From contig JAJCYE010000034.1 in assembly GCA_029263075.1 (NCBI GenBank), positions 1-60,846 of the forward strand: a stretch of 60,846 nt of DNA, read 5' to 3'. Below the pieces are notes generated by a model that made no database searches, had not been told where the DNA came from, and saw only the letters and a program-made list of their open reading frames with translations. Shown piece by piece: positions 1-6,766 of this stretch. Both the position numbers and the translations under genes were made by a program. Within the stretch, counting starts at the first letter, position 1. Every line of letters starts with the position of its first letter. The DNA is from Actinomycetes bacterium. GTDB taxonomy: Bacteria > Actinomycetota > CADDZG01 > JAHWKV01.

Positions 1-188
1 ATGTGAAGCATCTTGCCCCGGTAACGCAGCGTCACCCGGGAGTCCTTGTCCACCTTGTCGTGACGAACCCGTGCGTCGACTGGGAGATTTTTGACCTTGG
101 CTGCTGATGGGACCGCCTTGTCCCGGCCGGCAAACGCCTCGGCCGGTGTCATTCGGTCTCTTGCCCGATGGGGCCTGGTCTGTTGTAA
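1..188 (-). mobile_element. IS481-family transposase C-terminal remnant (runs off window edge)
   Basis: Minus strand reads YN-(1-nt slip)-TRPHRARDRMTPAEAFAGRDKAVP...RVRHDKVDKDSRVTLRYRGKMLH, matching the YNxxRPHRAL...TPAEA...RVRxDKVDxxGxVTLRY tail typical of actinobacterial IS481 transposases. Not in the ORF track. Confidence 0.65.
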
Positions 189-4614: not shown

Positions 4615-4893
4615 ATGTCTGAGTCGGCCTTCTGGTATTTCGAGCCCTGCGAGGCAGAGCGGGTAACCATCACCGTGGCCGACATGCCCGAAAATCCCGG
4701 GTACTGGGTGCGGGAACAGGGCCTGGTGGGGACCGACAGGGCTGCGGTCAAGGTGACCTACCGCAAGACGACCTTCTACCTGGACGACGAATTCGGCAAA
4801 GGATGGCGCAAGGTCACCGAGGAGCAGGGCAGCCCGCAGGCGGCTCACGCCGAACTCCACCCGGTCGAAGGCTCCGTGAGGCCCCGGCCCTAG
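4615..4893 (+). CDS. Hypothetical protein
   Basis: GC3-biased codons; leaderless geometry GATAAT-6nt-ATG. Confidence 0.7.
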   Translation: MSESAFWYFEPCEAERVTITVADMPENPGYWVREQGLVGTDRAAVKVTYRKTTFYLDDEFGKGWRKVTEEQGSPQAAHAELHPVEGSVRPRP

Positions 4894-5564
4894 CCGGTTT
4901 CGACGGTCTCCGAGGGTCCCAGGTCCAGGCGGAACGGCGGGTAGTCGTCGGTCATAAGCAGCGCGTAGGACCACACCCGGTAGACCCATCGGTTCATCCC
5001 CAGGTTCAGGTTGAACAGGGTTTCCGGGTACCGCCCGGTAAACAGCAAGGCGATAGCTGCGATGAACGCCAGCAGGCCTATCAAGCCCGGGTACGTCAGG
5101 TTCAGCGAAGTGTCGCCCGCAGCCACTTCGTACGAGAACCCTACGAAAAAGGCGACGATGAGGTAGTGCGGGATCGCCAGCAGCCAGGCTTTGACAAGCA
5201 CCAGGCCCCGGGACAACTTCTCCGGGTATTCGACGTTCAGTCGCGCCGGGTAGTCCGGGTCGTCTTCCAAGGAGAACGGCGGGTACCGGTCGGTCCCCAG
5301 CACCTCAAACGCGTAGAACGAAACTCTCCAGCCCCACCGCATGACCCCTACGTTGTAGTCGAAGAGGGCCCGCGGGTACCTGCCGGTAAAAAGGATGGCA
5401 AACCAGGCGGCGATCGAAGCCAGCACGGCACCTATCGCCAGGACGATCAGCACGAATACGTGGGGTAGGGCAAGAAACCACTTCACCAGCCACTTCCACC
5501 GAGACAAACCTTCGTCCAGGTGGCCTTCGATCGAAACCGGATACTTGCCGGGGCTAAGCGACAT
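4890..5564 (-). CDS. DUF4389 domain membrane protein
   Basis: Two repeats of LSRxxxLVKWxLAxPH...LFTGRYP...RWxxRV...TDxYPPF. Confidence 0.9.
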   Translation of the reverse strand: MSLSPGKYPVSIEGHLDEGLSRWKWLVKWFLALPHVFVLIVLAIGAVLASIAAWFAILFTGRYPRALFDYNVGVMRWGWRVSFYAFEVLGTDRYPPFSLEDDPDYPARLNVEYPEKLSRGLVLVKAWLLAIPHYLIVAFFVGFSYEVAAGDTSLNLTYPGLIGLLAFIAAIALLFTGRYPETLFNLNLGMNRWVYRVWSYALLMTDDYPPFRLDLGPSETVETG

Positions 5565-5666
5565 CTGACCTCCCTCTTTGGGACCTGGACCTGTCGGGCG
5601 ACGAGGCTACTTACACTGTAAACCTCCCGATGGGCCCTGTCACGAACATCCTGCCGCCGAACCCGC

Positions 5667-5698
5667 TTGACCTTGGAGTCGGCTCCAAGGTGTACGCT
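5667..5698 (+). promoter_or_regulatory. MerR/ZntR-type promoter-operator with 20-bp spacer
   Basis: TTGACC (5667-5672), 20-bp spacer, TACGCT (5693-5698); dyad ACCTTGGAG-tcgg-CTCCAAGGT at 5670-5691. Confidence 0.85.
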
Positions 5699-5705
5699 CC
5701 TGACT

Positions 5706-6185
5706 ATGGGACTGAAGGTATCGCAGGTGGCCAAGAAAACGGGGATCTCCCCCGATGCAATTCGCTACTACGAGGAGTTGGGGCTGCTGCCCGCGGCCGA
5801 GCGGACGGCGTCCGGATACCGGCAGTTCGGCGAAGAGACGGTGAAGCGGATCGGATTTATCAAGGACGCCCAGAGCCTGGGTCTTCGTCTCGATGAGATC
5901 GGCGAACTGCTCAAGATTCAAGACGACGGGGCTTGTCCCTGTGGCCACACCAAGCTGCTCCTCGAGCGCAAGCTGGAACAGGTGAACCGGGAGCTAGAAG
6001 TCCTCACCGGCCTGAAGAGGCAGCTTGAGCGCCTCAGCGCCCAGGAATGTTATTCGGACCCAGACACCCCGGTCTGGCCGTGCGAGATCGAGCTGAAGAG
6101 AGGGGGTGAAACCATGACCGAACCCGACTGCCCCTGCGGCTGCACCTGCGGAAGCAACGATGGACCGTGCACCTGCGGCTGCTAG
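5706..6185 (+). CDS. Heavy-metal-responsive MerR family regulator with Cys-rich C-terminal tail
   Basis: LKVSQVAKKTGISPDAIRYYEELGLL...RTASGYRQF...IKDAQSLGLRLDEI; ligands ACPCG, ECY, WPC; tail DCPCGCTCG...CTCGC. ATG lies 7 nt after the -10. Confidence 0.92.
   Translation: MGLKVSQVAKKTGISPDAIRYYEELGLLPAAERTASGYRQFGEETVKRIGFIKDAQSLGLRLDEIGELLKIQDDGACPCGHTKLLLERKLEQVNRELEVLTGLKRQLERLSAQECYSDPDTPVWPCEIELKRGGETMTEPDCPCGCTCGSNDGPCTCGC
6114..6185 (+). CDS. Putative nested metallothionein-like peptide MTEPDCPCGCTCGSNDGPCTCGC (in frame with merR)
   Basis: In-frame ATG preceded by AGAGAGGGGGTGA-aacc, a near-consensus SD; 7 Cys in 23 aa, arranged as CxCxCxC and CxCxC. Confidence 0.55.
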   Translation: MTEPDCPCGCTCGSNDGPCTCGC

Positions 6186-6268
6186 CAACCCGGCGATAGC
6201 CCCCTGAGGGGCAACCGGTGCGACGGCGGGCCCTCCCGATCGGGCCGTCGATCCGGCATCACCAACGA

Positions 6269-6766
6269 TTATCCGGCACTGTTGGGCGGCTGGAACGCCA
6301 CTCCGGGGTGCACCCCGGGTGCCAGCCCCTGCGCGGTCGCCACCTTGCCGAGCAGGCCTACCAGCTGAACTCTTTCCGCCTCGCTAAGGCCCTTGGTGAG
6401 TTCCGTCTCGTGATCGGCGCTTATCTTCATCACCGTATTCAGGATCTCTCGTCCCCTGTCGGTGAGGTGAAGGGCCCTGATCCGCCTGTCGTCGGGGTTG
6501 GGTCGCCTCTCCAAAAGGCCCAGATCTTCAAGCTCGTCGACGAAGGCCACCATCCGGCTAGGCGGGAGCCGCATCTGCGTACCCAGCGCCAGTTGAGAGC
6601 GGCCCTCCTCCACGCTCACCAGCCTCAACAACACCACGTGCCTGGAGTCGAGACCCAGTTTTTTCATGCGTTCCCGCCAAATCTGACCGGAGTGCACACC
6701 GACCTGCGACATTAAGAACGCCGCACCCGGAACCACAATCTTTTTCGGATCGCCTCTTTCGCTCAC
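6269..6766 (-). CDS. MarR family regulator
   Basis: SQLALG...PPSRMVAFVDELEDLGLLERRPNPDDRR...LTDRG. Confidence 0.92.
   Translation of the reverse strand: MSERGDPKKIVVPGAAFLMSQVGVHSGQIWRERMKKLGLDSRHVVLLRLVSVEEGRSQLALGTQMRLPPSRMVAFVDELEDLGLLERRPNPDDRRIRALHLTDRGREILNTVMKISADHETELTKGLSEAERVQLVGLLGKVATAQGLAPGVHPGVAFQPPNSAG

Follow-up and report, generated by a model that had tools for sequence, protein, structure and literature searches.

A leaderless, self-directed merR gene with a nested cysteine-rich peptide: a putative metal sensor-and-sink cassette of Actinomycetota

Introduction

What does a metal-sensing regulator of the MerR family control when there is no efflux pump beside it? This question is raised by a merR-family gene on contig JAJCYE010000034.1 (assembly GCA_029263075.1) of an Actinomycetes bacterium, an uncultured soil/biofilm actinobacterium whose genome is 2.4 Mb in 142 contigs. 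The window analysed here is the whole stretch from position 1 to 60,846 of that contig. The gene, called merR in what follows, is preceded by a MerR-type promoter that is directed at merR itself, and its last codons contain a Shine-Dalgarno (SD) sequence followed by an in-frame ATG that opens a short cysteine-rich reading frame. We propose that the locus may be a self-contained metal sensor-and-sink cassette, in which a leaderless, self-activated sensor is combined with a mini-metallothionein in a manner analogous to TipAL/TipAS, and we give this reading a probability of roughly 0.6. One short transcript would then probably make both a metal sensor and a tiny, unannotated metal-binding peptide.

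Results

The promoter of merR is directed at merR itself

The first-pass annotation of this locus had described a MerR-type promoter with a 20-nt spacer and a dyad between its hexamers that faces merR, and had noted a likeness to the zntA operator of Escherichia coli. The promoter is indeed present at the positions given there (Table 1) and, when it is compared with the E. coli K-12 record of the zntA promoter, 25 of the 32 positions from the -35 to the -10 hexamer are identical, the spacer being 20 nt in both. The ATG of merR at 5706 is 7 nt past the -10 hexamer and therefore there is no room for an SD before merR. The dyad is the sole match in the window when up to three mismatches are allowed (0.03 expected), and it occurs as a single perfect copy in the 2.4-Mb genome. 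A match with three mismatches on contig C35 was considered as a second operator and was rejected as chance because it lies inside a ValS-like open reading frame (ORF) and because a control with the reversed pattern also gave one match.

The same layout is found in the relatives. The strict pattern TTGACN-20-TANNNT-6..8-ATG fits 34 of the 38 related loci that have upstream sequence, so that the self-directed, leaderless promoter claimed for the window is a kept feature; the remaining four have the same layout by eye, with a variant -10 hexamer or a shifted start. Among the 34 fitting loci the spacer is 20 nt in every one, the dyad scores 7-9 of 9, and the -10 hexamer is separated from the ATG by 6 nt in 28, by 7 nt in five and by 8 nt in one. 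Since just 6-8 nt lie between the -10 hexamer and the ATG, any merR message from this promoter has to be leaderless.

Two side observations concern this start. Entries P0005, P0008, P0030, P0066, P0069 and P0108 of the protein collection have merR called too long, through its own operator, which gives N-termini like ...LDLGVDSKVY; such over-extension by gene callers appears to be systematic because the start is leaderless. Homologues from Acidobacteriota (L079-L088) have a dyad of their own, CCCTGTAG-N4-CTACAGGG, in a leaderless, self-directed promoter, and the gene downstream of their merR codes for a membrane protein with a CGRVHC motif or for a thioredoxin-like protein. Because these distant homologues share the leaderless layout, the self-directed promoter is likely to be a trait of the whole branch, and the "sensor first, small cargo second" operon is, judged from these layouts, much wider than the clade with the Cys-rich peptides.

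The regulator groups with metal-sensing MerR proteins

The 159-residue protein matches the Pfam families MerR_1 (PF13411, 1.7e-16), MerR (PF00376, 2.1e-16) and MerR-DNA-bind (PF09278, 7.7e-16). Among solved structures it is closest to Hg-bound Bacillus MerR (4ua1, E = 5.6e-21) and then to CadR, Tn501-type MerR and CueR. In the ungapped part of the alignment to 4ua1, C79 of the query lies on C79 of MerR and C115 on C114, and by extension of the alignment C126 comes to the place of C123. Across 25 aligned homologues there is no variation at C77, P78, C79, G80, H81, T82, C115, W124 or C126. An AlphaFold (AF2) model made from a 25-sequence alignment predicts a winged helix-turn-helix (wHTH) of helices and strands at residues 5-74, with a predicted local distance difference test score (pLDDT) of 86-91, and a long helix that spans 81-112. 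For residues 113-159 the model gives no secondary structure and a pLDDT of 38-56, as would be expected of an apo metallothionein-like tail.

The scores against the NCBIfam equivalogs are all under the cut-off, namely, 94.3 against 150.85 for TIGR02051, 90.3 against 167.95 for TIGR02043, 87.4 against 151.45 for TIGR02047 and 87.4 against 147.4 for TIGR02044. By these matches the sensor belongs to the metal-sensing MerR group but to none of the named sensors. A cysteine at position 79 is the mark of divalent-metal sensors in the MerR family, and CueR has a serine there. Based on its C79, the inducer of the sensor is more likely to be divalent Cd, Zn, Hg or Pb than Cu(I).

The 3' end of merR contains a nested reading frame

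Near its 3' end merR codes for K-R-G-G-E with the codons AAG AGA GGG GGT GAA, which are followed by AACC and then, 4 nt after the SD, by the in-frame ATG at 6114. The peptide that would start there has 7 Cys in 23 residues and is without F, W, Y and H. The internal SD, the in-frame ATG and the Cys-rich tail had all been pointed out before and are found where they were placed. The SD matches GGAGGTGA at 7 of 8 positions, and its core is 7 nt from the ATG. In 25 long ORFs of the window, AGA accounts for 2.6% of the Arg codons, GGG for 24% and GGT for 16% of the Gly codons, and GAA for 32% of the Glu codons; the joint probability of the codon choice that makes up the SD is 2.4e-4.

In most relatives the peptide is a gene of its own

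Related loci were gathered from 61 related genomes and from a scan of the genomes of 185,579 species, which gave 70 deduplicated loci with the 3' end of merR in view. The cassette is present in 19 of the 61 related genomes, five of these carriers being unpublished. A mini-ORF of 16-27 residues with 5-9 Cys lies at or just past the end of merR in 40 distinct Actinomycetota loci, and in five of them two such mini-ORFs are in tandem, which makes 45 peptide ORFs. These counts take in L011, L013, L015, L017 and L018 from unpublished genomes; for three of these, L011, L017 and L018, identical public records exist (L042, L053 and L054). When the mini-ORF detector was run on random control windows from the same loci, 8 of 960 were positive.

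If only the first peptide per locus is counted, 35 of the 40 loci have the peptide as an ORF of its own, 29 of them overlapping the end of merR and six being behind a gap (in one of the latter, L076, merR is broken). The remaining five, namely, the window, L007, L008, L038 and L048, have it fused in frame to merR. The 29 overlapping peptides are in another frame than merR and overlap it by 1-23 nt. In the public same-genus relatives L033, L034 and L035, whose proteins are 68-79% identical, the peptides are MDPDCPCGCTCGSDGTPCTCGCC, MDEANCPCGCTCGTDGGPCTCEEGCPC and MEPDCPCGCTCCSDGGPCTCGC, and merR stops 11-14 nt into the peptide gene. Since these peptides are in the +1 frame relative to merR, they must use their own start. 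The spacer between GGTGA and ATG is 4 nt in the window and 5 or 8 nt in the split same-genus relatives, and thus one base decides between the fused and the split state.

An SD of the type seen in the window accompanies the peptide ORFs throughout. Before the 45 peptide ORFs GGAGGTGA is matched at 8 of 8 positions in 28 and at 7 or more in 42, the background in 22-nt windows of the same loci being 0.14% and 1.3%, respectively. The distance from the SD core to the start is 5-9 nt in 42 of the 45, and the start codons are ATG in 35, TTG in six, GTG in three and CTG in one. Most merR genes translate the SD as R-G-G-E; in L010 it reads R-R-stop, the fused proteins P0029 and P0037 have it as K-E-V-N, and in L012, L014, L022 and L024 it lies between the genes. 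Because the SD is kept in three frames of merR and also when it is intergenic, it is the bases of the SD that are conserved rather than the amino acids. Two checks suggested by the first-pass annotation have thereby come out in its favor: SD and start are conserved at the nucleotide level beyond RGGE, and there are species, in fact the majority here, that split the two ORFs with an SD of the GGAGGTGA type. Its description of the locus as one gene is true of the window and the four other fused loci but has to be given up for the group, where, as the compared loci indicate, the commonest and ancestral state is the two-gene overlapping operon and the fused form is a minority. On a maximum-likelihood tree of 39 sensors and two outgroups, from which L076 was left out for its broken merR and whose bootstrap is not fully settled, the fused label needs three changes, and the well-supported branches force at least two.

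Variation in the peptide genes is almost confined to third codon positions, which argues for selection at the level of the protein. In the 13-codon core of the CPCCGCPCG... type (15 sequences) the variable positions are 13 of 13 third, three first and three second positions, and in the 9-codon core of the CDCGPECPC type (11 sequences) they are 8 of 9 third, no first and one second position. Invariant columns number 9 of 13 and 6 of 9 in the peptide frame of the two types, and 0-1 in the other frames. The window's own peptide type is represented by four close sequences, for which the third-position test is without power. These patterns mark the peptide as the product of a genuine gene, one that 35 of the 40 relatives translate on its own.

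These data bear on whether the Cys-rich short ORF could be a cysteine-responsive leader or attenuator, the product of which would be irrelevant. Such a role has been reported for short ORFs rich in Cys codons (bioRxiv 10.1101/834739). Here, however, the amino-acid pattern between the Cys residues is kept under synonymous change, and the ORF is 3'-terminal on its transcript and preceded by an SD; in the window it faces a convergent MarR gene. By crude ORF calling, 27 of the 40 loci have a convergent ORF as the next long one. Of the explanations considered in this work, a role as an attenuator is the least probable.

The sensors in question are recognizable by their CPCGH motif, and 37 of the 43 loci with a CPCGH-motif MerR carry the mini-ORF. 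The six without it are L022, L024 and L025, with a Cys-rich ORF of ~75 residues and a coiled coil, L065, with 37 residues and 6 Cys, L059, with 20 residues and 3 Cys, and L026, in which a thioredoxin-like gene comes after merR. The ~75-residue ORF of L022, L024 and L025 (44-46% identity) is behind a like SD and has two CxCGC-type clusters followed by a predicted coiled coil; it may be a longer relative of the peptide or an alternative cargo. The MerR of L025 has a C-terminus made of eight tandem copies of the 5-residue repeat TNVGK.

What kind of peptide is it?

At least six peptide sequence types accompany very similar sensors. Neither the window peptide nor five orthologous peptides matched a Pfam or NCBIfam family at E up to 10, and the 40-residue tail region had no match among the 30-86-residue proteins of a collection of 5.8 billion proteins. 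The window peptide is small, has about 30% Cys in CxC/CxxC-type motifs and is without aromatic residues and His, which are the operational marks of a metallothionein, and it shows no profile match to the prokaryotic metallothioneins (SmtA/BmtA, Pfam Metallothio_Pro). The peptide would thus be called a metallothionein in the operational sense only.

Two other roles for the peptide have to be weighed against metal sequestration. It could be a regulator or metallochaperone that delivers metal to the MerR site or removes it from there, as in CopZ-CopY and MerD-MerR, and so sets the threshold of the sensor or resets the sensor. The constant pairing of the peptide with one regulator subfamily (the 37 of 43 CPCGH loci) while other neighbors are unconserved, the tolerance of a fusion to the sensor and the lack of a visible efflux partner in the regulon of this genome would all agree with this. 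On the other hand, the occurrence of at least six peptide types beside very similar sensors, in tandem in five of 40 loci, fits generic thiolate chelation better, and we find the metallochaperone role rather improbable. The second role is that of a precursor of a ribosomally synthesized and post-translationally modified peptide (RiPP), for which the peptide has a suitable size and Cys content. Since no modifying enzyme, protease or exporter recurs beside the 40 loci and the peptide is without a division into leader and core, we attach very little weight to it. A minimal metallothionein is the role that we prefer for the peptide.

The fusion in the window is genuine

The frame in the window hangs on a single base among homopolymers, and in two sequencing runs it is accompanied by a relative of the split type, in which an additional A follows 6113. 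The in-frame fusion might, for these reasons, be suspected to be an assembly or sequencing indel, the true pair being split as in the relatives. This is hardly credible because in a second sample an independent contig of 13,944 nt at depth 15 spans 5550-6350 with two substitutions, no indel and an identical fused junction, because a relative of ~91% identity from another study is gap-free over 6032-6281, with TTG at 6114, and because the identical 159-residue protein is present on three contigs in the protein collection. The fusion in the window is not an assembly error.

Is the peptide still started internally in the fused state?

The main doubt for the window is whether internal initiation has persisted after the fusion, and there are several points that weigh against the cassette as we propose it. 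The core of the SD in the window is GGGGG instead of GGAGG, and a perfect SD is found in two of the five fused loci as opposed to 26 of the 35 split loci; this may mean that fused loci are losing internal initiation. The related strain mentioned above reads TTG at 6114, which is a start codon in six of the 45 peptide ORFs, yet is also a codon for Leu. SD pairing was judged on the universal anti-SD, the 16S of this genome being assembled for model positions 9-902, without the 3' end. A look for RNA sequencing runs that contain the stretch gave none. The sensor scores below the curated cut-offs of the MerR(Hg), ZntR, CadR/PbrR and CueR equivalogs (87-94 against 147-168 bits). The peptide matches no curated family, and its metal binding is predicted from its composition. 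Lastly, the GC hairpins that had been noted after the stop do exist, but their fold does not stand out against shuffled sequence (z = -0.65; 51 of 200 shuffles were as good).

The SD with its weakened core, the proportion of perfect SDs and the TTG would all fit a situation in which the peptide is now just a metal-binding C-terminal part of the sensor, like the His-rich tail of CadR, while the SD and the ATG are left over from the split ancestor and give no free peptide. It fits as well that the fused-length homologues, 11 among the 120 protein database matches listed, form one whole clade, so that the fusion is stable. However, the rare codons AGA-GGG-GGT-GAA have still been kept in the window (2.4e-4), and the SD is a perfect 8/8 in the two fused loci that have diverged most. 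At the right distance, 2-3 residues after GGE or GGD, seven of the 11 fused-length homologues have Met and the other four have Leu, as read from protein sequences only. The state has, moreover, toggled at least two times, which is explained most easily if the peptide's own start works in either state. We consider it unlikely that the peptide is nothing but a tail, although among the alternatives this one has the most in its favor. Under the cassette reading, the full-length protein of the fused lineage would be a sensor with a chelator tail, and a free peptide would still be possible.

Surroundings of the cassette and sequence after the stop

The features of the locus are collected in Table 1.

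Table 1. Positions of the features of the merR locus in the window
Feature	Position	Strand	Remarks
-35 hexamer TTGACC	5667..5672	+	TTGACN in 34 of 38 related loci; aligns with the -35 of E. coli PzntA
Operator dyad ACCTTGGAG-N4-CTCCAAGGT	5670..5691	.	Perfect 9+9, inside the 20-nt spacer
-10 hexamer TACGCT (TANNNT type)	5693..5698	+	20 nt after the -35 hexamer
merR-family ORF, leaderless	5706..6185	+	159 residues and stop; wHTH, dimerisation helix, Cys/His metal site, Cys-rich tail
Internal SD AGAGAGGGGGTGA	6097..6109	+	13-nt purine run inside the merR codons for K-R-G-G-E
Nested 23-codon ORF MTEPDCPCGCTCGSNDGPCTCGC and stop	6114..6185	+	In frame with merR; stop at 6183-6185
Two GC-rich hairpins, tentatively a terminator	6199..6256	+	Folds at 6199-6212 and 6215-6256

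The genes up to about 3 kb on either side of merR code for a methyltransferase, a TetR protein, an ORF without a family, a DUF4389 protein (divergent), a MarR protein (convergent), a DUF2269 protein and an M1 aminopeptidase. No metal pump or chaperone is within ~3 kb on either side, so the earlier statement that merR has no such neighbor stands. A sigma-70-like site, GTGACA-17-TACAGT, at 5615-5643 (-) faces the divergent gene for the DUF4389 membrane protein at 4890-5564 (-) and is ~30 nt from the MerR dyad. A link of DUF4389 to the dyad is unlikely because DUF4389 is not a conserved neighbor in the relatives.

There are two P1B ATPases in the genome, both on other contigs and behind CsoR-like palindromes without the merR dyad; these GC-tract palindromes we take to be of the CsoR-operator type. 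No pump in the genome carries the merR dyad upstream, and a search of the genome for MerA gave no protein above the cut-off. In one of the P1B loci (L091, G000:C79, ~680-700) the ATPase is preceded by the palindrome ATACCCCC-C-GGGGGTAT. In the other (L092, G000:C15) the palindrome TACCCTAG-GGGG-GTAGGGTA, upstream of the ATPase start, adjoins a TTGAC, and about five tandem copies of a 13-nt unit, CCCTTTCCGGTAG, lie ~100-170 nt before the ATPase, just upstream of its promoter region. A small gene with an HMA domain precedes one of the two ATPases, and the other has a His/Gly-rich N-terminus.

Clustering of the flanking ORFs in the 40 loci revealed no recurrent partner beside the sensor-peptide pair. 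The flanks hold transposase-like ORFs in six loci, a methyltransferase in four and a P-type ATPase within 3 kb in four, where flanking ORFs were called by longest ORF only and shadow ORFs inflate some of the neighbor counts. The cassette looks self-contained and mobile among contexts.

A terminator consensus scan found none after the merR ORF. A hairpin that contains CCGATCGG follows the peptide gene in five loci of the window's type (6215-6256 in the window; L003, L004, L005, L007 and L008). In the type-A loci L009, L010, L013, L017, L038, L039, L044 and L048 the peptide is followed by a stem-loop with the constant loop GTTGCTAGCGCG and varying complementary arms; a conserved loop sequence would be unusual for a plain terminator. 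Rfam was searched with nine loci at E up to 1 and nothing relevant was found, the matches being a tRNA in L007 and three sub-threshold chance matches.

Discussion

How the cassette might work

Based on what is known of the family, the apo MerR dimer would sit on the dyad between the hexamers spaced by 20 nt and keep the promoter poised or repressed. A thiophilic metal would bind to C79 of one subunit and to C115 and C126 of the other, a site that would be extended by C77 and H81, and the metal-bound protein would distort the DNA and activate the promoter as in MerR, ZntR and CueR. In the layout found here the transcript would begin at or next to the ATG at 5706, giving a leaderless merR message, and induction would lead to more sensor, that is, to positive autoregulation. 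Ribosomes would also initiate at the ATG at 6114 behind the internal SD, as the signals and the comparison with the split relatives suggest, and the free 23-residue peptide with its 7 Cys would probably be in excess over the sensor. The peptide, acting as a minimal metallothionein, would chelate the inducing metal, free metal would fall and the circuit would be switched off.

Beyond the window, we lean, somewhat less firmly than towards the cassette itself, to a wider proposal. There would be a widespread, unannotated Actinomycetota family of metallothioneins of 16-27 residues that are always made from a near-perfect SD in the last codons of a leaderless, self-activating MerR, and this complete, portable sensor-plus-sink of less than 600 bp would be turned by single-base indels from two overlapping genes into one gene with two products, or the reverse. 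If this is true, these peptides would be the shortest known bacterial metallothioneins and the cassette would be the metal counterpart of TipAL/TipAS. A class of very short bacterial metal-binding peptides would be added that gene callers overlook, the peptides falling under the length cut-off, and the principle of a sensor and a sequestering product from one autoregulated MerR gene would be extended from antibiotics (TipA, AlbA) to metals. The natural series of split, overlapping and fused forms of two products would be useful for studies of translational coupling and gene fusion, and the cassette, at <600 bp and with apparently no other component needed, could be a ready building block for metal biosensors or for bioaccumulation as soon as its metal has been identified. 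Full-text literature searches, with subscription journals and supplements outside their scope, found no published case of a metal-sensing merR that overlaps or encloses a gene for a Cys-rich peptide.

Comparison with known systems

With ZntR and the metal-sensing MerR group the sensor described here shares the wHTH, the dimerisation helix and the Cys loop, including the Cys at 79 and the two loop Cys, and its promoter shares with PzntA the dyad in a 20-nt spacer and 25 of 32 positions. It differs from ZntR, MerR, CadR and CueR in an extra Cys and His (CPCGH) and in a longer loop (C115 to C126). Its promoter drives the regulator's own leaderless gene, unlike the promoters of ZntR-type systems, which drive a divergent or distant pump gene.

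Known bacterial metallothioneins are controlled by SmtB or by CsoR/RicR-type repressors. The peptide is like SmtA/BmtA, the Pseudomonas metallothioneins and MymT in being small and Cys-rich, with CxC and CxCxxxC motifs, and in its proposed induction by metal and presumed role in sequestration, but at 16-27 residues in the relatives it is two to three times shorter; in size and Cys count it resembles the fungal Cu-metallothioneins of ~25 residues. It also differs from the known bacterial ones in being under a predicted MerR-type activator and in overlapping, or being nested in, the regulator gene. MymT, for example, is reported to be under a Cu-sensing repressor (PMC11672702). The first-pass annotation had taken bacterial metallothioneins to be outside MerR-type control and the present arrangement to be unusual. 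The statement on control needs softening since CadR of P. aeruginosa was reported in 2025 to activate zrd, a zinc-ribbon gene whose product the authors liken to metallothionein (PMC12301328). As in the proposed cassette, a MerR-family sensor, there of Cd/Zn, activates a small Cys-rich protein; by contrast, zrd codes for a separate, longer zinc-ribbon protein with mononuclear Cys4 sites and has its own promoter, and it neither lies within the regulator gene nor overlaps with it. The mycobacterial polycysteine leaderless short ORFs act as 5' attenuators, according to the report cited above (10.1101/834739), and the ORF described here differs from them in that it is at the 3' end of its transcript and not upstream of regulated genes.

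A parallel in design is tipA of Streptomyces lividans, which is reported to make TipAL and, from a second in-frame start, the predominant, ligand-sequestering TipAS, and to activate its own promoter (PMC7762955). AlbA/AlbAS has also been described as a TipAL/TipAS-like two-product MerR gene. The layout proposed here has in common with TipAL/TipAS a MerR N-terminal domain, a promoter under the protein's own control and a C-terminal part made alone from a second start. TipAL/TipAS differs in having an antibiotic as its ligand and a folded TipAS domain (PF07739). That domain is not among the Pfam matches of the 159-residue protein at E up to 0.01, and the gene is therefore outside the TipA class. 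Its tail of 23 residues would have no role in sensing, the sensing site being upstream of it, and in 35 of the 40 relatives, unlike in tipA, the two products are encoded by separate ORFs.

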